The translations under genes were made by a program, and so were the position numbers. Of a stretch of DNA of 15,106 nucleotides, positions 3 to 15,014 are shown in pieces. Below the pieces are notes generated by a model. It was given only the letters and a program-made list of their open reading frames with translations. It searched no databases and was not told where the DNA came from. Where the stretch lies: positions 1 through 15,106 of the forward strand of contig DAIDBH010000004.1 in assembly GCA_027310185.1 (NCBI GenBank). Direction: 5' to 3'. Origin of the DNA: Thermoplasmatales archaeon. Lineage in GTDB: Archaea; Thermoplasmatota; Thermoplasmata; Thermoplasmatales; Thermoplasmataceae. Positions within the stretch are counted from its first letter, which is position 1; the number at the start of each line of letters is the position of its first letter.

Positions 3-3000
3 ACAGGAGGGACATCTCCTTACACTTATGCATGGTACAATAGTGGGACATTAGAATCTTCCACGTCAAGTACATATACAACCTCATTCAGTAGTTCAGG
101 GACGTATGTTATCGAAGTGATAATCAAAGATGCCAACGGAAATAAGGCATACTACAACTTTACAGAAACTGTAAATGTCGATCCCTCAGTCAGCATCACA
201 TCCTCACAAAACCCAACAGATGTCGGTAATAGTGTTACATTCACGGCCTCAGCCTCTGGAGGATCAGGATCATATACTTATCAGTGGTATTATGCAAGCA
301 ATAACACAGCAATATCAGGAGCAACGGGATATGAATATACCAGATCTTTTAGCACATCGGGGACATACTCGTTTTATGTCATCATTCATGATGGCAATGG
401 CAATGCAGCCCAATCAAGCACATTGGACGAGACTGTAAATGCTGATCCGTCAGTAAGTATCTCTGAGTCTCCATCTCCAACAGATGTGGGAGTAAGCGTG
501 ACTTTTACGTCCTCAGCCTCTGGTGGTACTGGTTCTTATAATTATACATGGACGATAGACGGTAAAACCTATTACACGCAATCTGTGACAGTAGTATTCG
601 GCACCTCAGGGACATATACAGCACAACTAACTATAAGGGACACTCTTGGAGACACAGCAAGTGCATCAGAGAGCATAGTGGTCAATCAGGATCCAACAGT
701 AAGTATCAGTGCAGAATATTCAACTGTCTATTCAAAAACAAATGACACTCTCTCAGCCTCAGGAGATTACGGCACTGGCACTTACAATTATACATGGTAC
801 AATGGGACAACAATCATAGGATATGGGCATACCCTAATTTACAAGTGGGGATCAAAGGGCAATTACACGATCTCTGTAGAAATAAAAGACTCACTTGGAG
901 AGACATACACAACCAGTGTCATCATTCAGGTTGTACCACATCCTGACATTTTCATAGCAGGGCCATTAAAGGTAACAGTTGGGCAGTCAAACACGTGGTC
1001 TATGGTTGCATCTCATTTAACAATTAACGGTAATGTAGAATGGTACAATGACGGCACAAGTGCATCTGATACAACTCCATTCTTTACCTTCTCTTATCCT
1101 GTCGCAGACGTGAATGAAACCATCGAAGTCAGTTATGACGTGCAGGGAAAATACTACAATAGCACAATAACAATCCATGTGTATGGTAAACCTAAGGTAT
1201 CAATCAGCGAGACTGATCTCACAACCGATGTTGGACTGAGTGATTCATTCAGTGCAATTACCTCCTCAGGTACTCCTGGTTATACATTCGTATGGACTGT
1301 AGATGGGCAGTCATTCGACTCTCAGGACTTTACATACTCATTCAGTAGTTCAGGGACACATCTCGTAAAGGTAACTGCTACTGACGGTGACGGCGTCTCG
1401 GTCTCAGCAGAGGCTAACATAACTGTAAATGCTGATCCGTCAGTAACGATTTCTACCTCTAATAGCCAGTACGATCTCGGTTATTCCATAACATTCACAG
1501 CCTCGACAAAAGATGGCACTAGGTCATATACTTATCAGTGGTACCTGAACGGCAATGCAGTCTCAGGGGCAACGTCAAGCACTTATACAACCTCTTTCAC
1601 TGCCTCAGGCACTGATTCGGTATATGTGATCATTCAGGATAGTTTAGGTGTAAGTGCAACCTCTAATCATATCTCAGTAGATATCAAAAATCAACCAAGC
1701 GTAACGGTCTCAGCATCAAGGCATAATGCAGATACCGGACAGGTTATATCATTTGATTCAGCGGTCTTTAACGGTACAGGGCCGTACACTTATGAATGGT
1801 TCATAAATTCAGGGTCAGTATCAACCCAAGCCTCTTTCTCATATACCTTTACCACTGCTGGAACATATACAGTGAAACTCACGGTAACTGATTCAGATGG
1901 GTATTCTTCAAGTGCAAGTGTGACTGTTATTGTATCCTCTGATCCGTCCGTCTCAATCAGCACGCCGCATTCAAAAATTGATATTGGATATGCTGATTCA
2001 TTTTCAGCAGCTGCAACAGGAGGACTTTCTCCATATTCTTATGAATGGTTATATCTTGGCAATTCAATTTCTACCTCCTCCTCGTTATCTTACTCTTTCA
2101 ACAGTGCAGGAAATAAGACTATCGAGGTAATTATAACAGATGCAAACGGATACAATTCATACTCAAATATCACTGTTCTGGTAGTCTCCCATCCTTTTGT
2201 GCAGATAGGGGAAAAATACAACTCTTTAGATGTGAATGTACAGGATATTTTCACATCTACGGTTGAATATGGAAGTGCACCATACAACTACACATGGTAT
2301 GTCGGATCAGTGATTGTTGGATATGGATCTTCTCTTTCCCATACCTTTACCACTGCTGGAACATACACAGTCAAACTCACGGTAACTGATATAGATGGCT
2401 ATAAGTACACTGCTTCTAAAGGCGTTACTGTTGTTGCTTCTCCATCTGTAAGCATTCTCGCAAACTACCACGAGATAGATCAGGGGATGACTATTGATTT
2501 CCTCTCAGGAGTGCAAAATGGCACAGGGCCATACAACTACACATGGTCAATAGGCACTGTTGCTGTGGGCTATTCATCCTCGCTTTCCTATGCATTCAGT
2601 ACATCGGGGACGTATACTGTCTCTGTCACTGTGAAAGATTCATTTGGAGAATCAGGTAAAGCATCAATAACCATAACCGTAAACAGTCCTATTTCTGTTA
2701 GTGCTTCCGTAAAATACAATTCTATAGACGCTGGACAGAACGGTATCTTTACAGGTTCAGTAACAGGCGGTACAGGGCCATACAGTTATTCATGGGCGAT
2801 AGATGGAAATGTTATCAGTTCTCAGCAAATGCTTACTTATTCTTTCATCAATCCTGGTACCTATACAATCACATTCACTGCAACCGATTCGTTTGGAAAA
2901 TCAGCCTCTTACTCTCTGTCCATAAAAGTTAATCCCTCGCTCTCAGGGGCGTTGAATATCACATATACAACAGTGGATACCAATATTACTGACACGATCA

Positions 3001-4919
3001 CACTCACTGCAAAGAATGGTACAGGGCCGTACACTTATGCAATCCTGATCAATGGCAAGTTAGTATCTTCTATCGATTCATATTCTCAATATTTCACGTC
3101 TCCTGGCACTTTCCTCATATCAGCATACATAAATGATTCCTCAGGGCAAAGCATCCGGTTGACAGCTTCCATAGTGGTAAGGGCAAATCCCACTGTCTCC
3201 ATCGTATCTCCAACGAACAAAACAGACGTTAGCGATCTGACCAGTTTCAGAGGCATCCTTACAGGAGGCATAGGACCATATACATACTCATGGCTTGTAG
3301 CGGGGCATACCTATGCAAATTCAACTCTTTCGTATGCATTTCTCTCGACTGGCGAGTACACGGTGCAGCTAACAGTCACGGATGCATTCGGCAGGCAAGC
3401 AATCGCATCCATAAACGAAACAGTATTCCCAGATCCAACCGCAACGCTGGTAAAACCTGCACACATTGTAGCATCAGAGCAAACCCCTCTCTCTCTGAAC
3501 ATTTCCGGTGGAATTGCACCATTTAAGGTATCATGGGCATTCCCGGGAGGTGAACAGTTCTCCGGTAACGCCATAACCTATGCTTTCAGCTCATCAGGAC
3601 CAAATACATTCCAGGTTAGGGTGCAGGATGCCAGTGGATATACAGATACACAGAATTTCACTGTAAATGTTGGTTTATATGTTACCATCTCAGCAAATCA
3701 GACAAGAGGCATAGGGCCTCTATCAGTCCAATTCAGTTCATCCGTCCTAGGCGGATCAAGTTATTCATACAACTGGACATTCTCTCCAGGGCATTCGAGT
3801 TTAGAACCTAATCCCTCCTATACTTTTCCAGTGGGTAACTATACCGTGCATTTTACTGCAACCGCAAATAATGGGGCAATAGGCCAGAAAAACTTAACCA
3901 TACAGAGTCTACCAGAGCCAGTTACTTTCCTGTATAGCACTGATCTAAACATTACTCAGGCATTCCATTTCAGGGCTGTACCTAATTGGGATGCAGAGGC
4001 GCCATATTCAGCGTCATGGTCATTTCCCAACGGACAGCAACTTACGGGACTGAATATCTCTTATAAGTTTCCAGTATACTCAGAATTTAACAAGGTTCTG
4101 GCAACATTCACATTCAATGGAAAATCATACTCGCAAATCTTAACCGTCAGGATGATCCCTGCAAATCCGATCATATCTTTCAAACTACCTAAAATCATAC
4201 CTGTTGATACTCTTCTCTCTCTTAATGCAACAGCCTCAGCACCTGATTCGTCCTCATTCACATACCAGTGGACGATCAATGGGCATTTAGAATCAGGACA
4301 GGATCAGTTTTATTATTTCAGTTCAGTCAAAAATTACTCCGTCTCTCTTACTGTCACAGATTCGCTTGGTGCAACTACGACGATATCTCATTATATCGAT
4401 GTTGTAGCACTGGAGAGCAATACAACCATTGTGATCGGTTATCATCTAAAGACAATCGGGCCTGACGATTATTATACTATCAAAGTTCAGTCTACAGATG
4501 GGATTGACATTACAGAGGCATTTCTAGGGGATAACCAACTTACTCTTACTCTGATAAATGAGACAACCACATCCTCGGGCACAATCGCATATTACAATCT
4601 TACTCTCCTACAGTCAGATTATCCTGCTGGAACACACTCACTTAATGTAATTTCATTTAACTCTCAGTCTCAGAGTAATCATGTTACTATCCCATTTTCA
4701 GTGTCGAGTCAGTACTCATCTTCAAGTTTTTCCTTCGAGACAATCATTCAATTTTTCGGAGGATTCTCAAATTTCCTCGTGCTAATACTGACACTTGCAG
4801 GAGTTGTGATTGCATATTCTTCATTGAATAGGGAGGCAAATCCTGACGTGGTCATACAAGAGACAGGCAAAAAGGGAAAAACAAAGAGTGTAGTCCTGAA
4901 GGGCAGGAGGAAGAAATAA
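3..4919 (+). CDS. Giant PKD/Ig-like repeat surface protein with C-terminal membrane anchor (5'-truncated; adhesin or spike candidate)
   Basis: The frame is open from position 3 (TGGTSPYTYAWY...), so GTG at 117 is not the true start. About 17 complete ~83-aa repeats follow the pattern P-S-V-S-I...D-V-G...F...GGTGPYxYxW...SYTFxxxGTYxVxLTVTDxxG, plus a partial repeat at the window edge and a divergent last beta domain. It has many N-x-S/T sequons, a hydrophobic helix (FSNFLVLILTLAGVVIAY) and a basic tail (KKGKTKSVVLKGRRKK). Confidence 0.92.
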   Translation, partial: TGGTSPYTYAWYNSGTLESSTSSTYTTSFSSSGTYVIEVIIKDANGNKAYYNFTETVNVDPSVSITSSQNPTDVGNSVTFTASASGGSGSYTYQWYYASNNTAISGATGYEYTRSFSTSGTYSFYVIIHDGNGNAAQSSTLDETVNADPSVSISESPSPTDVGVSVTFTSSASGGTGSYNYTWTIDGKTYYTQSVTVVFGTSGTYTAQLTIRDTLGDTASASESIVVNQDPTVSISAEYSTVYSKTNDTLSASGDYGTGTYNYTWYNGTTIIGYGHTLIYKWGSKGNYTISVEIKDSLGETYTTSVIIQVVPHPDIFIAGPLKVTVGQSNTWSMVASHLTINGNVEWYNDGTSASDTTPFFTFSYPVADVNETIEVSYDVQGKYYNSTITIHVYGKPKVSISETDLTTDVGLSDSFSAITSSGTPGYTFVWTVDGQSFDSQDFTYSFSSSGTHLVKVTATDGDGVSVSAEANITVNADPSVTISTSNSQYDLGYSITFTASTKDGTRSYTYQWYLNGNAVSGATSSTYTTSFTASGTDSVYVIIQDSLGVSATSNHISVDIKNQPSVTVSASRHNADTGQVISFDSAVFNGTGPYTYEWFINSGSVSTQASFSYTFTTAGTYTVKLTVTDSDGYSSSASVTVIVSSDPSVSISTPHSKIDIGYADSFSAAATGGLSPYSYEWLYLGNSISTSSSLSYSFNSAGNKTIEVIITDANGYNSYSNITVLVVSHPFVQIGEKYNSLDVNVQDIFTSTVEYGSAPYNYTWYVGSVIVGYGSSLSHTFTTAGTYTVKLTVTDIDGYKYTASKGVTVVASPSVSILANYHEIDQGMTIDFLSGVQNGTGPYNYTWSIGTVAVGYSSSLSYAFSTSGTYTVSVTVKDSFGESGKASITITVNSPISVSASVKYNSIDAGQNGIFTGSVTGGTGPYSYSWAIDGNVISSQQMLTYSFINPGTYTITFTATDSFGKSASYSLSIKVNPSLSGALNITYTTVDTNITDTITLTAKNGTGPYTYAILINGKLVSSIDSYSQYFTSPGTFLISAYINDSSGQSIRLTASIVVRANPTVSIVSPTNKTDVSDLTSFRGILTGGIGPYTYSWLVAGHTYANSTLSYAFLSTGEYTVQLTVTDAFGRQAIASINETVFPDPTATLVKPAHIVASEQTPLSLNISGGIAPFKVSWAFPGGEQFSGNAITYAFSSSGPNTFQVRVQDASGYTDTQNFTVNVGLYVTISANQTRGIGPLSVQFSSSVLGGSSYSYNWTFSPGHSSLEPNPSYTFPVGNYTVHFTATANNGAIGQKNLTIQSLPEPVTFLYSTDLNITQAFHFRAVPNWDAEAPYSASWSFPNGQQLTGLNISYKFPVYSEFNKVLATFTFNGKSYSQILTVRMIPANPIISFKLPKIIPVDTLLSLNATASAPDSSSFTYQWTINGHLESGQDQFYYFSSVKNYSVSLTVTDSLGATTTISHYIDVVALESNTTIVIGYHLKTIGPDDYYTIKVQSTDGIDITEAFLGDNQLTLTLINETTTSSGTIAYYNLTLLQSDYPAGTHSLNVISFNSQSQSNHVTIPFSVSSQYSSSSFSFETIIQFFGGFSNFLVLILTLAGVVIAYSSLNREANPDVVIQETGKKGKTKSVVLKGRRKK
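1843..2390 (+). repeat. Near-identical 50-bp intragenic direct repeat (1843-1892 and 2341-2390)
   Basis: ATACCTTTACCACTGCTGGAACATA(T/C)ACAGT(G/C)AAACTCACGGTAACTGAT is 48/50 identical. Both differences are synonymous and the offset is 498 nt, equal to two PKD repeats. Confidence 0.9.
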
Positions 4920-9616: not shown

Positions 9617-10642
9617 ATGGTAGAGAAATGGATTACAAAAAAAGATGGAATGAATGAAAGTAAGCATGTTAAAATAGAGACGTCTAAAAAGACAAGGGAA
9701 GTCATGGTATCTAAAATGGAACCCTCTGCAGGCCAGCTTGAGAAACAGGCATGGGCTATCCTTGGAGATCTCTCTAAGGTTACAACAGTTGATCAGCTGC
9801 TGCTGAGTATGAAGAAATACAGCGGCACACTGGGAAACTACTCGGGAGAAAACTCAATGCTGATCTATATGCAGAATCCAAATGCAACCATAGTCAGATC
9901 GGCCACAGAATGGAAATACTTTGGAAGGGAGGTAAAGCCGGGAGCTCATAAGATGAGCGTGCTGTTTCCCATAGGCATACCGCAGAAAGCAGGACCTGGT
10001 AAACTGAAGGACTTCATGGAGAAGAAGAGGGAAGAGGGATTGAGCGACGAGGCCATAGCGCAGCTTGTAAAGGAGAAATTCAACCTCGAGGGAGATACCG
10101 CATACCACTTTGGCGTTGGCAGTGTATATGATATCAGGGATACCGAGCCTATTCCAGGAAAGCCCCAGAAGCCGGAAGATGAAACAATCAAGGCACAAAC
10201 ATTCTACAAGGATCTGAAGGAGATTGCAAAGAAGCACTATATCGTTCAGGAGGATTCAATAGCCGGAGTGCATGGTGCCAGAGGATACACTGCACATTCA
10301 TCTGATGGGGAAGGGCAGAGGATCGTTGTTATGAAGGTGCCAGGAGAAGATGAGAACGTGCTGCATACATTGATTCATGAAATGTCCCATGCAAGGCTCG
10401 ATCACCTGAAAAGGAAGGATATCCCAAGGGGTATTGCAGAATCAGAGGCGGAACTTTCAACCTACCTTGTTGGAGCGCACTTCGGTTTTGACTTCAAGGA
10501 TGACAGTGCTGCATACATAAAGGGATGGCTCGATGATCCTCAAAACAAAGGGAAGAAGCTGGATAAGGAAAACTTAGACAGGGTTTTGAACAATGCCAGA
10601 TGGCTGATCAACCAGATAACTAATAAGATTGGCAGCCAGTAA
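9617..10642 (+). CDS. ArdC-like protein: N-terminal ssDNA-binding domain plus C-terminal zincin-like metallopeptidase (HExxH)
   Basis: NYSGENSMLIYMQNPNAT...EWKYFGREVKPG fits the ArdC-N/DUF1738 pattern. TLIHEMSH...ESEAELSTYLVGAHFG...SAAYIKGW fits the ImmA/IrrE/MPTase-like pattern. SD GGAGG. Confidence 0.85.
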   Translation: MVEKWITKKDGMNESKHVKIETSKKTREVMVSKMEPSAGQLEKQAWAILGDLSKVTTVDQLLLSMKKYSGTLGNYSGENSMLIYMQNPNATIVRSATEWKYFGREVKPGAHKMSVLFPIGIPQKAGPGKLKDFMEKKREEGLSDEAIAQLVKEKFNLEGDTAYHFGVGSVYDIRDTEPIPGKPQKPEDETIKAQTFYKDLKEIAKKHYIVQEDSIAGVHGARGYTAHSSDGEGQRIVVMKVPGEDENVLHTLIHEMSHARLDHLKRKDIPRGIAESEAELSTYLVGAHFGFDFKDDSAAYIKGWLDDPQNKGKKLDKENLDRVLNNARWLINQITNKIGSQ

Positions 10643-10654
10643 GAAATCTAAAAT

Positions 10655-10719
10655 GCAGAAAAACCAGTCAATCATTTTATCTCAGATAGGCTGGATTTTC
10701 TGCCATCATATTTATTTTT
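10655..10719 (+). terminator. 19-bp imperfect inverted repeat followed by a T-rich tract downstream of the ardC-like gene
   Basis: GCAGAAAAACCAGTCAATC (10655-10673) and GATAGGCTGGATTTTCTGC (10685-10703) are 16/19 complementary with an 11-nt loop, followed by TTTATTTTT (10711-10719). Confidence 0.5.
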
Positions 10720-10746
10720 GATCTACTATGAAAGAAGTTTTTTGAT

Positions 10747-10886
10747 CGTACTCCATAACGTGTGGAGTACGGGTCCGGGAAAGGCTGCCGATTTGTTCTT
10801 TGAGTCCTGAACTCGTGTAAAAGGTTGGCAGCTTACGGATCGACACCATGCCTCGAAAGAGACGAATAGTAGAGTGTTTACCGACC
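10747..10886 (+). ncRNA. Putative IS110 bridge RNA (5' hairpin, target-binding loop, donor-binding loop)
   Basis: Hairpin CGTACTCCA/TGGAGTACG (10747-10771). Stem AGGCTGCCGA/TTGGCAGCTT encloses the inner hairpin GAGT-CCTGA-ACTC. A second module has the inner hairpin TGCCTC-GAAA-GAGACG flanked by GACACC and ATAGTAG, which match the donor junction. Transcript boundaries are approximate. Confidence 0.7.
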
Positions 10887-10921
10887 ACATATTTCCCGGA
10901 ATTACCATAGGAGGTAACAGA

Positions 10922-12067
10922 ATGTATATAGGAATAGACGCACATAAACTTAGCGAATCCGTATGTGTTACGGATAAGGTTGGAACTATACTGGAAGAGT
11001 ACAAAATGGACAACAGTGAAGAGAACTGGAATAAGTTCATGAAGAAATACAGTAAAGATGATGCAGAGATTGCCGTTGAATCATCAACATCAGGAAAGTA
11101 TGTTGCCCATCTGTTGAGGGATAATGGATTCCATCTGCACCTTGCAAACCCAAAGGAGTTGAAGCCAGTATTCAAATCAAACAAGAAGACGGATAAGAAT
11201 GATGCAAGGATTCTTGCAAGGCTTCTCCGTACGGGTGATCTTCCTGAATCATACCTTCCCTCAAAGGAGGTTGATGAACTGAGAACAGCCGTAAGATACA
11301 GGAGGTCTCTTGGAGAGGAGATCACCTCCATAAAGAATAAGGTCCATGCTCTCCTTGCAATTCATGGCATCAGCATAGAGGCTTCAGACATTTTCGGAAA
11401 GAGATCACTGGGCAAAATACTTGCCTCTTCGGACGGGCTTCCGGAAACAGACAGCATCATACTGACAGATCTGATCTCCAGGTTCAGTGATCTGTCACTG
11501 AGGATAGAAAAGATGCAGGATAAGCTTGCATCCATGGGAAATGGCATTGAAGAGGTGAAAACACTCATGACAATACCAGGGATAGATTACTACAGTGCAA
11601 TAGCAATATACTCTGAAATAGGAGACATAAAACGTTTTCCTGACGCTGATCATCTATCTTCATATGCAGGCCTTGTTCCCCGTGTGGATCAAAGTGGAGA
11701 AACTGCAATTTATGGGCACATAACAAAATCCGGTCCATCTGTATTGAGATATTTCATTGTGAATTCGGTACATACACTGATCAAGCTATCGCCAACATTC
11801 AAGAGAGTGTACAGAAAGATGAAGAAGAGGATCGGAAGGAACAGATCAATTATAGCAGTGGCAAGGAAACTTGCCGTTGTCATATATAACATGCTTGAAA
11901 AGAAGAAAGAATTCGTGGAGGAACATGCGTTTAAAACACTGAAGGAGAAGAAGCTGAAGAACATGGCAGCAAGATCTGCAATATCTCATGGATTCAGCAG
12001 GGAAGACATGGAAAATGTAATTAAGGATATTGGAATTCGTTCAAAGTCAACAAGACTTCTTTCATGA
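10922..12067 (+). CDS. IS110-family transposase/recombinase (DEDD RuvC-like plus Tnp20 domain), 381 aa
   Basis: SD GGAGGT at 10910-10915 precedes MYIGIDAHK. Catalytic motifs are GID, AVES and KTDKND. C-terminal motifs are TIPGI...EIGDIKRF and YAGLVPRVDQSG (conserved Ser), plus AVARKL. Confidence 0.95.
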   Translation: MYIGIDAHKLSESVCVTDKVGTILEEYKMDNSEENWNKFMKKYSKDDAEIAVESSTSGKYVAHLLRDNGFHLHLANPKELKPVFKSNKKTDKNDARILARLLRTGDLPESYLPSKEVDELRTAVRYRRSLGEEITSIKNKVHALLAIHGISIEASDIFGKRSLGKILASSDGLPETDSIILTDLISRFSDLSLRIEKMQDKLASMGNGIEEVKTLMTIPGIDYYSAIAIYSEIGDIKRFPDADHLSSYAGLVPRVDQSGETAIYGHITKSGPSVLRYFIVNSVHTLIKLSPTFKRVYRKMKKRIGRNRSIIAVARKLAVVIYNMLEKKKEFVEEHAFKTLKEKKLKNMAARSAISHGFSREDMENVIKDIGIRSKSTRLLS

Positions 12068-12081
12068 CACCTTATCTGTTT

Positions 12082-12100
12082 AAAGGACACAAAAGGACAC
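12082..12100 (+). repeat. Tandem 9-bp direct repeat AAAGGACAC with 10-bp period (possible operator)
   Basis: Copies at 12082-12090 and 12092-12100 overlap TTTAAA (12079-12084), upstream of the regulator gene. Confidence 0.45.
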
Positions 12101-12130
12101 TGTTATGAAATATGTTTAATTTAAGCAATA

Positions 12131-12538
12131 GTGATTACTGCGGAAGAATGCCAGAGTAGAAAATCATCCGCAAGGATTAATTTAAAAACCAAAACACTAC
12201 TCCGGGAGTGGGATAGGCTTCATAGTAGAGGCAGGAAGAGATCCTATGAAGAGATAATCACTGCGCTTTTAGAAAGGGACAGAAACAAATCAAATGCATT
12301 CTTCAATCTTAATCTCCCAGTTGTTGACAGATTCATTCTCACCCTGATAGAAGATGGAGTAAAGACATCAAAGGTTATTCTGACCAGGCTTAAGAAGGAA
12401 AATTTTAACATCTCCTTGAGATCGCTTCAGTCTCACCTGGAATACCTTACCAGAGACAATCTGATTATAAGAAAAAGGAAAGACTATGGAAATGAATACG
12501 AATATTTCATCTCAAATTATGAGAAAGCATTAGAATAA
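12131..12538 (+). CDS. DNA-binding regulator: RHH-like N-terminus fused to winged-helix C-terminal domain
   Basis: SARINLKTKTLL...SYEEIITALLE has a strand-helix-helix pattern. VDRFILTLI...TSKVILTRL...ISLRSLQSHLEYLTRDNLIIRK...EYFI has a wHTH pattern. The GTG start is uncertain. Confidence 0.75.
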   Translation: MITAEECQSRKSSARINLKTKTLLREWDRLHSRGRKRSYEEIITALLERDRNKSNAFFNLNLPVVDRFILTLIEDGVKTSKVILTRLKKENFNISLRSLQSHLEYLTRDNLIIRKRKDYGNEYEYFISNYEKALE

Positions 12539-12869: not shown

Positions 12870-13502
12870 ATGGCTTTGCCCATCCCAAAGAACATGATGA
12901 TCCAATCAAGTGGAAGATCTCTGTCAATAGATTTTTTTTCAGATGATGAAGTTAAGAAGATCTTTCATGAGATATCTGAAAAGATCAATACAGATAAAAA
13001 GAGAACAGATAAACATAAGCGGTATTTTCTACTGGTTGAATTTCTATATAGAACAGGCGGGAGAATAGATGAAGTTCTCCTGGTTAAACCGTCCGATGTG
13101 AATCTGGCCACAAATTCGATCAGAATGAAGACACTTAAACAGGGCAAAGATAAGAACGGCATTCAAAGAGAGAAATACAGAATTATACCATTGCATTTGG
13201 AATTAAGGGATGCATACATGCAGTATCTACTTGACATGAACATTTCAACAAAATCTGAGGATCCTTTATTTCCAATGTCGAGGCAGGTTGTAGATCTTTA
13301 TTTTAAGAAGATGCAGGATAAACTTGGCTTTAAGGTTCATGCCCACAAGTTCAGGCATACCTTTGCAGTTAAGGCCATAATGGATAATGTGCCATTGAAT
13401 ATATTGCAGCAATGGTTAGGCCATTCATCTGTTTTTACAACATCGATATATACTCAGATAACAGGAATGGATACTTCAGAGTTTATGGAAAGGGTGAAGT
13501 GA
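12870..13502 (+). CDS. Tyrosine recombinase (catalytic domain only, resolvase/Xer-like), 210 aa
   Basis: Full catalytic set: TGGRIDE (R), LKQG (K), HKFRH (H-x-x-R), WLGH (H) and TSIYT (Y). There is no room for an N-terminal core-binding domain. Confidence 0.93.
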   Translation: MALPIPKNMMIQSSGRSLSIDFFSDDEVKKIFHEISEKINTDKKRTDKHKRYFLLVEFLYRTGGRIDEVLLVKPSDVNLATNSIRMKTLKQGKDKNGIQREKYRIIPLHLELRDAYMQYLLDMNISTKSEDPLFPMSRQVVDLYFKKMQDKLGFKVHAHKFRHTFAVKAIMDNVPLNILQQWLGHSSVFTTSIYTQITGMDTSEFMERVK

Positions 13503-13537: not shown

Positions 13538-13700
13538 CTGACATACTCTCCTCGCTAAAGCATCGGAGGTTCTAAGGTCGCTATCACTCATAACGTTGCC
13601 TCTCAAGGGATATCAGTGTTCCCTTTGCACGCATCACTGTCTACATGCAATCGATCTATGCCTTTCTCAAATGCTGGACGCAACGCTATGTTGAATGAAG
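13518..13700 (-). ncRNA. Predicted TnpB omegaRNA/reRNA (3' end of tnpB, right end and flanking guide)
   Basis: Inferred from established IS200/IS605 biology. The scaffold ends at TCAG and the guide is the adjacent flank ATCTGCAACTAATGTG.... The 5' boundary cannot be determined from sequence. Confidence 0.5.
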
Positions 13701-14604
13701 CGTTGGCATCGGCATGATCAACGTGCCCACACTGCGAACACTCAAAACTCTTACCTGAACGGTTGCCTATCTGCCTACATCTCGAACAGTCTTTCGATGT
13801 ATTATATGGGTCAACATAGACAACGGGTATTCCAAGTAGTCTGGCTTTGTATTCTATCATCTGTTCGAGCTGATAGAATGACCAGCTATTCAGGGAATAC
13901 CTGAAATTCCTGCCCGATTTTGCTTTCCTTATGCCTTTTAGGTATTCGAGCTTGATTCCCATTCCATTCTGTTTTGCTTCCTGCACTATTTTTTTCGAGA
14001 CCTTGTTATTGATATCTTTCTCTATTCTACTTTCTCTTCTCTTTGTCTTCTTCACCTTCCTGTATTTACCACGCTTCTGAAGATTCCTTCTAATGCTCTT
14101 ATATTTCTTATGAACATGTTCAGCTTGTTTTCCAAGTTTTAACACTTTGCCTGTTTTGGGGTTGCCTACTACGGCAATATGACTCGTGGCGTTCCGATCA
14201 ATGCCAAGGTAACCGACCGGTTCGATCATGGCTTTCTCCGGAATTAATACCGAAACGTATGCAAAATCCCTGTCCAGTTCAATCTGGCTTATTTTCTCAA
14301 AATCGTTCCTGAAATAATAGCCCAGTTCCAGTCCAAGCGAAGTTATTGTTATTGTCCTGTTTCTATGATCGAACTTAATCCCCTGTGCAGGTACTGTGAG
14401 TTTTACCGATTTGACCTTTTTTGCACGAAAGTTCCTGCTGTATTTCCGGAGAATCTGGTTGGCTATAACGGATTTAAGTCCAAACTGCTTGACATTCTTT
14501 GAGGAGAGTGTTCTGTGCTCTATTGCATACTGTGCTACCTGTTTCGCTTTATTCAGTTCATCGGAGAAATCCCTGTTATGCTTAATTTTAAATGTTAATA
14601 TCAT
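13603..14604 (-). CDS. tnpB: TnpB RNA-guided endonuclease, 333 aa
   Basis: RuvC-I LGIDRN, RuvC-II IKLEYL, WSFYQLEQMIEYKA, Zn finger CSRC...CSQC and RuvC-III HADANA. ATGA overlap with tnpA. Confidence 0.95.
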   Translation of the reverse strand: MILTFKIKHNRDFSDELNKAKQVAQYAIEHRTLSSKNVKQFGLKSVIANQILRKYSRNFRAKKVKSVKLTVPAQGIKFDHRNRTITITSLGLELGYYFRNDFEKISQIELDRDFAYVSVLIPEKAMIEPVGYLGIDRNATSHIAVVGNPKTGKVLKLGKQAEHVHKKYKSIRRNLQKRGKYRKVKKTKRRESRIEKDINNKVSKKIVQEAKQNGMGIKLEYLKGIRKAKSGRNFRYSLNSWSFYQLEQMIEYKARLLGIPVVYVDPYNTSKDCSRCRQIGNRSGKSFECSQCGHVDHADANASFNIALRPAFEKGIDRLHVDSDACKGNTDIP

Positions 14605-15014
14605 ACCCCTTTCTGCTCCTCTATGTATTTTTTTACAACCTCAAGTGTTACTGCACCCACGGAAGAAATGAATTTCGAATGTGTCCACAGGGTTGGAAGC
14701 TTTCTCTTAAGTTCTGGGAACTCATTTCGCAGGACGAACGAACTGTACCCCTTAATCTGATTGACAACGTGATATACACCACACTTTGGATTGATGTCTA
14801 TCAAGAGATGTACATGATCGGGCATAACTTCCATTTCAAGTATCTTGTACTGGTATTCATCCTGCTTCTCCATAATTAGCTCTTTTAGTCTCAGATCGAT
14901 GCCATCCTTCAGGACGCTTCTTCTGTATTTGGGACAAAATATTACATGGTATTGACAACTGTACACCATATGCGACTCATGATGATATTCCTTTTCCTTA
15001 TTACTTATTTCCAT
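14601..15014 (-). CDS. tnpA: IS200-type Y1 HUH transposase
   Basis: YHVIFCPKYRR, HUH motif DHVHLL, IKGYSS, and catalytic Tyr in VKKYIEEQ. Confidence 0.96.
   Translation of the reverse strand: MEISNKEKEYHHESHMVYSCQYHVIFCPKYRRSVLKDGIDLRLKELIMEKQDEYQYKILEMEVMPDHVHLLIDINPKCGVYHVVNQIKGYSSFVLRNEFPELKRKLPTLWTHSKFISSVGAVTLEVVKKYIEEQKGV

Follow-up and report, generated by a model that had tools for sequence, protein, structure and literature searches.

An IS110 insertion sequence of a Thermoplasmata-type archaeon with a probable bridge RNA in its left end

Contig DAIDBH010000004.1, the 15,106-nt stretch of DNA analysed here (hereafter the window), carries at positions 10725-12072 what is very probably an intact and recently active insertion sequence (IS) of the IS110 family from a Thermoplasmata-type archaeon, and the left end of this element most likely encodes a bridge RNA of the kind known from IS621. 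The view draws on the ends and core of the element, on the family of its protein, on an RNA fold with compensatory changes, on guide segments that covary with the DNA flanking each insertion and on guide segments that covary with the element ends between two related families. A first-pass annotation had proposed such an RNA, with readable target and donor guides, from the letters of the window; our close reading covered positions 10400-12400.

Ends, copies and recombinase of the element

The tips of the element, ACTATG... on the left and ...GACAC on the right, are not inverted repeats, and each is bordered by a short CT core with no long target duplication. The left junction reads TTTGAT-CT|ACTATG and the right junction CATGACAC-CT|TATCT. 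Inside the tips, an inverted-repeat scan found the two arms of a subterminal inverted repeat (STIR), complementary at 13 of 14 positions with the first 11 contiguous and perfect. Given the positions of these arms, the joined ends would read ACTTCTTTCAT-GACAC-CT-ACT-ATGAAAGAAGT or, written as the donor formed by right end, core and left end (RE-CT-LE), ...TTTCATGACAC-CT-ACTATGAAA... The left end is long (197 nt, 10725-10921) and the right end short, the arrangement of the IS110 group with the RNA in the left end.

The ends and CT core put forward in the first-pass annotation agree with those of other copies, namely a second copy in the same genome, copies in a related genome and a repeat contig. 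In the genome of the window (19 contigs, 1.88 Mb) the second copy is split across two contig ends, C17:1-143 (99% identity) and C14:84490-84628 (100%), and its identity to the window ends at ...ATGTT-CT|ACTATG and ...GACAC-CT|TTAAGTG. Copies that are 98-99% identical occupy two other sites in a related genome. Among the sequencing runs, which were used as assembled contigs throughout, a DNA run possibly from the source sample contains the element as a contig of its own, 1352 nt long and matching exactly 10722-12073. Its depth of 87, against 17-18 for both flanks, hints at about five copies in the likely source sample, all with T before and T after the CT.

The gene for the recombinase is open from the ATG at 10922 to the TGA at 12065-12067, so the stop codon lies inside CATGACAC, in the left donor arm as first proposed, and only 3 nt separate it from the core; the right end is indeed minimal. 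Judged by its sequence, the 381-residue product is an IS110-family recombinase. It has an N-terminal DEDD RuvC-like domain (Pfam PF01548, DEDD_Tnp_IS110, 1.5e-27, residues 3-146) and a C-terminal Tnp domain (PF02371, Transposase_20, 1e-20), and it scores 238 bits against the NCBIfam model NF033542, 'IS110 family RNA-guided transposase', for which the cut-off is 140. A sequence comparison with the PDB matched the transposases of IS621 and ISCro4 and no others, at E about 2e-9 and chiefly in the Tnp domain. Both matches can be aligned at the TDxxDA and SG motifs, VDQSGE standing opposite YESGSS of ISCro4, and the motifs IGID, VES, TDKND and QSG are present in the translation. D6, E53, D91 and D94 are likewise present; their roles would follow by analogy with IS621, the E and the TDxxD being the parts seen aligned. 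Upstream of the gene, the arms of a predicted hairpin over the GGAGG vary together in homologues (TTACC/GGTAA versus ATCATCAC/GTGATGG, compared by eye), and since both arms differ together in relatives this hairpin may limit translation of the recombinase.

Proposed guide segments in the probable left-end RNA

Homologues of the recombinase occur in 58 of the 169 genomes of the order (protein search, E up to 1e-20), with identities that include 99%, 98%, 94%, 71%, 68% and 59%, and the first 21 bases inside the left tip are identical across them. Used as an exact pattern, this 21-base sequence located 10 loci in species genomes and 16 in metagenomes, and the pooled relatives make up 27 distinct combinations of element and site. 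From 18 distinct full-length left ends, 14 were aligned for the fold, leaving out L012 (a near-duplicate of L011) and the decayed L051, L052 and L065; their mean identity is 88%.

The 197-nt left end folds at -66 kcal/mol (z = -4.1) into a 5' hairpin followed by two modules, each of stem, internal loop and hairpin. RNAalifold on the 14 homologues gave 48 pairs, with 97.8% of cells paired. Eight of these pairs show compensatory changes, a number that 0 of 500 shuffles reached, and slid controls were 31-45% paired. The compensatory pairs fall in the outer stem of loop 1 (four), the inner hairpin of loop 1 (two) and the inner hairpin of loop 2 (two). In the 5' hairpin the changes that preserve pairing are G-U wobbles only, and the closing helix is invariant, so that covariation neither supports nor contradicts it. 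Variation in these left ends is concentrated in two blocks, which are the two proposed target-guide segments.

All motif strings named in the first-pass annotation lie where it placed them (GACACC 10842-10847, ATAGTAG 10866-10872, TTTGTTCT 10792-10799 and AAAAG 10819-10823). In loop 1, TTTGTTCT and AAAAG flank the GAGUC...ACUC hairpin; in loop 2, GACACC and ATAGTAG flank the CUC-GAAA-GAG hairpin. The spacing of 7-8 nt that the first-pass annotation gave from each inner hairpin to the core-pairing AG is about right, with 10822-10823 following a hairpin that ends at 10814/10815 and 10871-10872 following one that ends at 10863.

For the target guides the decisive evidence is comparative. In the left-guide test the 8-mer homologous to 10792-10799 was scored against each element's own left flank and against those of the other elements, with 100,000 permutations. 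This used 22 of the 27 rows, L052 and L055 being excluded for sharing the site of L051, and L060, L061 and L064 for flanks closely like those of L057. Own flanks matched at 8/8 in 3 elements, 7/8 in 10, 6/8 in 4, 5/8 in 2 and 4/8 in 3; own flanks average 6.36/8 and others' flanks 5.03/8, and 0 of 100,000 permutations reached the observed sum. Guides that differ strongly from one another equal their flanks, as in TCCTAT-CT, CCGCT-CT and ATTGGA-C. In the right-guide test the reverse complement of the bases preceding the core-pairing AG served as the predicted flank in those 12 elements whose right end could be read. For the 5 nt directly following the CT, the mean was 3.58 for own and 2.09 for others' flanks (1 of 100,000 permutations; 1 to 7 of 100,000 when other lengths are counted), and CT-TGTAT, CT-TTAGG and CT-GTT were found as predicted. 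The covariation of guide and target that the first-pass annotation called for thus exists on both sides, in the strand sense it had proposed.

It had further predicted a preferred target near TTTGTT-CT-TTT. This fits the four left flanks found with the window's exact guide (TTTGAT, TATGTT, ATTGGT and TTTATT, CT following each; right flanks TATCT, TTAAG and TAGAC), but no natural site is a perfect match. The TTTATT flank comes from an RNA-library contig and is absent from the assembly of this genome. Contigs from drainage and tailings runs (X5, X6) match conserved parts of the left end and skip the guide-bearing region (10785-10861 or 10792-10887), which would follow from the coexistence of many variants with different guides.

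For the donor guides, the window itself already speaks against chance. Dinucleotide shuffling of the left end, repeated 20,000 times, produced an exact GACACC with an exact ATAGTAG 10-40 nt further on in 3 cases, and the donor and target pairs together in 1; the target pair alone is not significant. Both donor segments match the RE-CT-LE junction as exact strings, as had been proposed, and they also covary with the ends between families. The comparison is with a sister IS110 family (loci L014-L039, e.g. L038:1288-2700) from the same archaeal order, 42-50% identical in protein, whose donor-guide matches were read by eye with the preceding G included. Of 16 elements compared, 14 have a left donor guide identical to their end at 5/5 positions (GACAT in 10, GATTT in 2, GACAC and GACCT in 1 each) and the other 2 at 4/5, and the variable base of the right donor guide is that of the end in 15 of 15 readable right ends (A in 12, G in 3). 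An additional element misfits; it lies nested against the end of another IS.

Table 1. Features of the IS110-family element and its flanks in the window
Feature	Positions	Strand	Evidence or remark
IS110-family element	10725..12072	+	1348 bp including one copy of the CT core
Left target (LT) TTTGAT	10717..10722	+	5/6 against guide TTTGTT
Core CT, left junction	10723..10724	+	CT at both junctions here and in other copies
Right donor arm (RD) ACT	10725..10727	+	between core and inverted repeat; ACTACT in some relatives
Left arm of STIR ATGAAAGAAGTTTT	10728..10741	+	13/14 complementary to 12052-12065
5' hairpin (GTACTCCATAACGTGTGGAGTAC region)	10747..10771	+	helix 1; 96% of cells paired
Closing helix, 5' strand UCCGGGAA	10774..10781	+	helix 2; pairs with 10893-10900; encloses both loops
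Target-loop outer stem, 5' strand	10782..10791	+	helix 3; pairs with 10825-10834; 4 pairs changed on both sides
Left target guide TTTGTT + core CT	10792..10799	+	covaries with left flanks, 22 insertions
Target-loop inner hairpin	10801..10815	+	helix 4; GAGUC...ACUC; 2 pairs changed on both sides
Right target guide GTGTAAA + core-pairing AG	10815..10823	+	AAAAG is its 3' part; covaries with right flanks, 12 insertions
Candidate handshake guide GU, target loop	10824..10825	+	complementary to AC, last two bases of left donor arm
Left donor guide GACAC + first core base C	10842..10847	+	same as 12066-12071; covaries between families
Donor-loop inner hairpin, GAAA loop	10850..10863	+	helix 7; CUC-GAAA-GAG; 2 pairs changed on both sides
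Right donor guide ATAGT + core-pairing AG	10866..10872	+	reverse complement of CT-ACTAT
Candidate handshake guide AG, donor loop	10873..10874	+	A may pair with T before target CT; invariant
Closing helix, 3' strand UUCCCGGA	10893..10900	+	fold prediction
Hairpin over GGAGG	10902..10917	+	fold prediction; UUACC...GGUAA; GGAGG 8 nt before ATG
IS110-family recombinase gene	10922..12067	+	381 aa; Pfam, NCBIfam and PDB matches
Right arm of STIR	12052..12065	+	within final codons of recombinase gene
Left donor arm (LD) GACAC	12066..12070	+	sequence and other copies
Core CT, right junction	12071..12072	+	sequence and other copies
Right target (RT) TATCT	12073..12077	+	2/5 against guide prediction TTTAC

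Proposed mechanism, alternatives and known systems

Under the bridge-RNA reading, a small RNA of the element would choose both the insertion sites and the element's own ends by base pairing. It would be produced from the left end, with a start and a stop of its own, and the element would pass through a circular intermediate. The loop-2 strands, GACAC-C on the 5' side and AUAGU-AG on the 3' side, would recognise the excised, joined ends ...CAT-GACAC-CT-ACT-ATG..., and the 381-residue DEDD/Ser recombinase would exchange strands at the CT core, by a chemistry presumed from its analogy to IS621. Scanning for sigma-70 promoters and terminators, a model that does not apply to archaea, yielded no signals beyond those expected. 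No archaeal promoter was located in the left end, in which a T-rich block at 10739-10746 is conserved.

The two bases past each core-pairing AG are probable handshake guides, acting after top-strand exchange. In IS621, as the text of Hiraizumi 2024 (PMC11208158) describes it, the two bases 3' of the core-pairing bases pair after exchange with positions 6-7 of the other DNA and not with the cognate DNA. In the target loop of the window these bases suit the left donor arm, and in sister-family elements, compared by eye, AU stands for AT, AA for TT, AC for GT and GU for AC, with one half-fit (AC for CT). On these sequence comparisons the IS621 handshake rule holds for the target-loop bases. In the donor loop only A 10873 fits, opposite the T before the CT (position 7), and there is no covariation.

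Not everything favours a bridge RNA, and the observations that weigh against it are considered here with the alternatives. The left end might be a mere 5' leader or translational control element, with the protein choosing the site and the guide matches due to chance or to a preference for AT-rich ...T-CT-T... sequences. A hairpin does sequester the GGAGG directly before the start codon, and the window-only target match is weak, being reached in 749 of 20,000 dinucleotide shuffles of the 197 nt. The background match of 5.0/8 is also high, because many targets share GAT-CT. Counting against the bridge RNA itself, a search of 10400-12400 against Rfam 15 at E-values up to 1 gave two chance-level matches (a miRNA and Xist), both outside the RNA, whether this release includes a bridge-RNA family not having been established. 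One RNA-library contig spans the whole element with its flanks; DNA may be present in that library, and the depth cannot be read as expression. However, permutations that preserve the background reached the observed covariation in 0 of 100,000 cases on the left and 1 of 100,000 on the right, strongly different guides match their own flanks exactly (ATTGGA, TCCTAT, CCGCT and, on the right side, TGTAT), and the sister family shows the same signal independently. It is these comparative data that make the target match convincing, and we regard a mere leader as highly improbable.

Loop 1 might alternatively be a true target guide while GACAC is structural, forming a stem with GUGUU (10874-10878), so that recognition of the donor would fall to AUAGUAG and to contacts of the protein with the long inverted repeat. 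This pairing had been raised as a caveat in the first-pass annotation, and within the window's family it is real: the predicted free RNA pairs the CAC of the left donor guide with GUG at 10874-10876, and RNAalifold does so in 14 of 14 sequences. In the sister family CUCGACA/UGUCGAG makes a 7-bp stem, and the 11-14-bp STIR is far above the 2-3 bp reported for the IS110 group in the text of Durrant 2024 (PMC11208160). Core bases occur in three of the guides (CT, AG and AG); the left donor guide covers the core incompletely, matching the first base only and reading CA where CT is expected, and its sister-family counterpart has AA at the core position. The donor loop and the ends are nearly invariant within the window's family, so the case for their pairing comes from identity and from covariation between families. 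That covariation weakens the caveat. In the sister family the guide GACAU changes to GACCU or GAUUU together with the end while the opposite UGUC is constant, so that identity to the DNA persists at the cost of the alternative stem. A purely structural GACAC is thus unlikely in our view.

The family may also be guided by bridge RNAs while the copy in the window is dead or mis-targeted and no longer mobile. Its right target matches the guide at 2 of 5 positions, the poorest fit, and none of the four left flanks found with its guide is perfect. The assembled contigs of the sequencing runs contain neither a circle junction (go-back joint) nor an excision product, that is, a contig skipping 10725-12072. 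A further point against the bridge-RNA reading is that no empty site was found among 103 genomes of the family: many of them keep the left neighbour gene, similarity stops at the end of that gene, and the empty site was not recovered because the right flank is without a syntenic match in these genomes. On the other side, the open reading frame is intact with its catalytic motifs present, the ends of the other copy in the same genome are 99-100% identical, and judging by depth the likely source sample may contain about five copies. That this copy is dead seems quite unlikely. Run contigs also hold two 'opposite strands' joints, from 10655/10657 to 12071, for which we have no explanation.

The left tip itself varies. 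Nine relatives (L006, L007, L008, L009, L041, L048, L051, L059 and L062) have ACTACTATG instead of ACTATG, which makes the junction (CTA)3TG in place of (CTA)2TG and suggests slippage of the end. Four of the nine junctions fit LT-CT-ACTACTATG, two are without the T of the CT, two are without the CT and one has the CT twice; five thus break the simple rule of target, CT and end, with 0, 1 or 4 bases at the core position, a further point against the proposed layout. We considered that ACTATG is the true end with extra target bases before the CT, and slippage of (CTA)n as the alternative; neither accounts for all nine junctions. In one further copy (L034/L010) the left tip is CTACTATTATG, and ATC stands at the position of the start codon.

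The layout of the RNA is that of IS621, as the first-pass annotation had it, both in the strand sense of the guides and in a two-loop fold with compensatory changes. According to the text of Durrant 2024 (PMC11208160), the 5' strand of each loop pairs with 8-9 nt of the bottom strand and the 3' strand with 4-7 nt of the top strand, counting the core, and in IS621 the core is included in all four guides. As with IS621 of Escherichia coli, the recombinase here has DEDD and Tnp domains, and the RNA sequence lies ahead of the gene in a long left end, with two internal loops and a CT core. In each loop the 5' strand equals the top-strand left half-site plus core while the 3' strand is complementary to the core plus right half-site, and complementarity to donor positions 6-7 is found in the two bases that follow the core-pairing AG in loop 1. 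The differences are also clear. The protein is only remotely similar to that of IS621, the host is archaeal and the promoter here must be archaeal as well, the donor arms measure 5 and 3 nt between STIR and core, and the left donor guide covers one core base and not two. The closing helix 10774-10781/10893-10900 is predicted to enclose both loops, and no non-coding right end precedes the core apart from the donor arm, the STIR arm lying within the gene. The length of the STIR departs from the IS110-group norm and resembles the IS1111 group, in which, according to the text of Durrant 2024 (PMC11208160), a STIR of 7-17 bp flanks the donor core and a short left end is combined with a long right end carrying the RNA. 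The present element has the opposite arrangement, a minimal right end and the RNA at the left. 

Bridge RNAs were described in bacteria in 2024, with predictions in 85.7% of the IS110 elements of ISfinder (text of Durrant 2024, PMC11208160), and large-scale mining has followed. A preprint by Vaysset et al. 2024 catalogues, by its text, 662 archaeal IS110 recombinases, and covariance models are described in the text of a 2026 preprint, built on 181,180 bacterial and archaeal intergenic sequences adjacent to IS110. Within the running text of the literature on IS110 bridge RNAs and recombinases, archaea and Thermoplasma, we found no described archaeal bridge RNA. Since bridge RNAs have been known since 2024 and the NCBI family is already named 'RNA-guided transposase', the mechanism is not new, and the element is a well-supported new example of a described mechanism rather than a new type of system. 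It adds a clean archaeal case with internal validation, in which the guides are readable at about 6+2+5-7 nt for the target and 5+2+5 nt for the donor, as well as a compact 381-residue recombinase from an acid-adapted host and a natural series of relatives whose guides can be read against their sites. For the IS1111 group, a seekRNA is reportedly the subject of Siddiquee et al. 2024. The hybrid features of the element, a left-end RNA with an inverted repeat of IS1111 length, bear together with the mirrored sister family described below on the relationship between IS110 and IS1111. For annotation, left ends that are otherwise nearly identical contain hypervariable blocks of 8 nt and 7 nt, and these are guides and not noise.

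Sister family and surroundings

The sister family shares with the window's family the 5' hairpin, the closing helix, the two loops and the hairpin over the ribosome-binding site, and its STIR, CTTTTTTCAT / ATGAAAAAAG, is similar; it differs in that, relative to its gene, the reading of the DNA is mirrored. Two of its copies are in the genome of the window, at the contig starts C1:1-1240 and C18:1-1240 (L035 and L036). Three copies in one complete genome set the ends as LT-AG|ATGTC-ATGAAAAAAG ... CTTTTTTCAT-AGA-AG|RT. On the opposite strand the joined ends read CTTTTTTCAT-GACAT-CT-TCT-ATGAAAAAAG, which is the layout of the window's family, and the central donor on that strand (GACAT-CT-TCT) is similar to GACAC-CT-ACT. 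Loop 2 has GACAU and AUAGAAG at homologous positions, its donor guides corresponding to the ends as read on the opposite strand. In loop 1 it is the reverse complement of the right flank that the 5' strand matches, at 6.4/8 versus 4.3/8 for others (0 of 100,000 permutations), and there is no signal against the left flank (3.67 versus 3.60). The mirror-orientation pattern of the sister family is well supported here, and we found no mention of such a pattern in the running text of the IS110 bridge-RNA papers searched for it.

It is possible, though we would put it at somewhat below even, that two related IS110 lineages, present side by side in these acidophilic archaea, share one bridge-RNA architecture with opposite orientation of target and donor, and that the asymmetric 10-bp donor centre (5 + CT + 3) is a cassette flipped in evolution, enabled by a long, near-symmetric STIR. 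Gradual drift of the guides, instead of an inversion event, may also account for the pattern. If true, a flipped donor cassette would be a natural demonstration that guides alone set cargo orientation.

Several single loci of the sister family are worth recording. In L033 the core at the right junction is AA (TT on the guide strand) with UU at the core position of the matching guide, and the left junction and the other guide keep AG/CT; this fits a target core that was once different from the donor core. At L037:1-1100 the left tips of two elements, one from the window's family and one from the sister family, meet head to head (...CTTTCATAGT-AG|ATGTCATG...), and the same junction recurs in L011, L012, L044 and L049. 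Apparently the insertion of the sister element took place precisely at the left junction of the other. With the nesting resolved, the original left target ACAGAT-CT fits the guide TCAGAT-CT; the right end of the nested sister element at L037 reads CATAGT and not CATAGA. On C1 the right end of the sister copy is tandemly duplicated (L035:1190-1240), with AACTTTTTTCATAGAAG present twice consecutively.

A probable acidophilic archaeon, the host suggested in the first-pass annotation, fits the records in which these elements occur. The named homologue records are metagenome-assembled genomes of Thermoplasmata, Thermoplasmatales or Thermoplasmatota, and the runs containing the stretch are mine-drainage, mine-tailings and fuel-cell metagenomes. 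The same 15-kb contig carries a second RNA-guided mobile element, an IS200/IS605-type pair on the minus strand (13603-15014) that consists of a Y1 transposase (14601-15014, minus strand; Pfam Y1_Tnp 3.7e-42) and a TnpB-like protein (13603-14604, minus strand; Cas12f1-like TNB 4.4e-23). Downstream of the IS110 element lies a short tyrosine integrase (12870-13502; Phage_integrase 4.2e-22), and the contig gives the impression of belonging to a mobile or variable region. The upstream neighbour at 9617-10642, a gene conserved across the family, has an ArdC-N match below the cut-off (5.9e-4), and a 1600-aa protein with PKD repeats is encoded at 117-4919.

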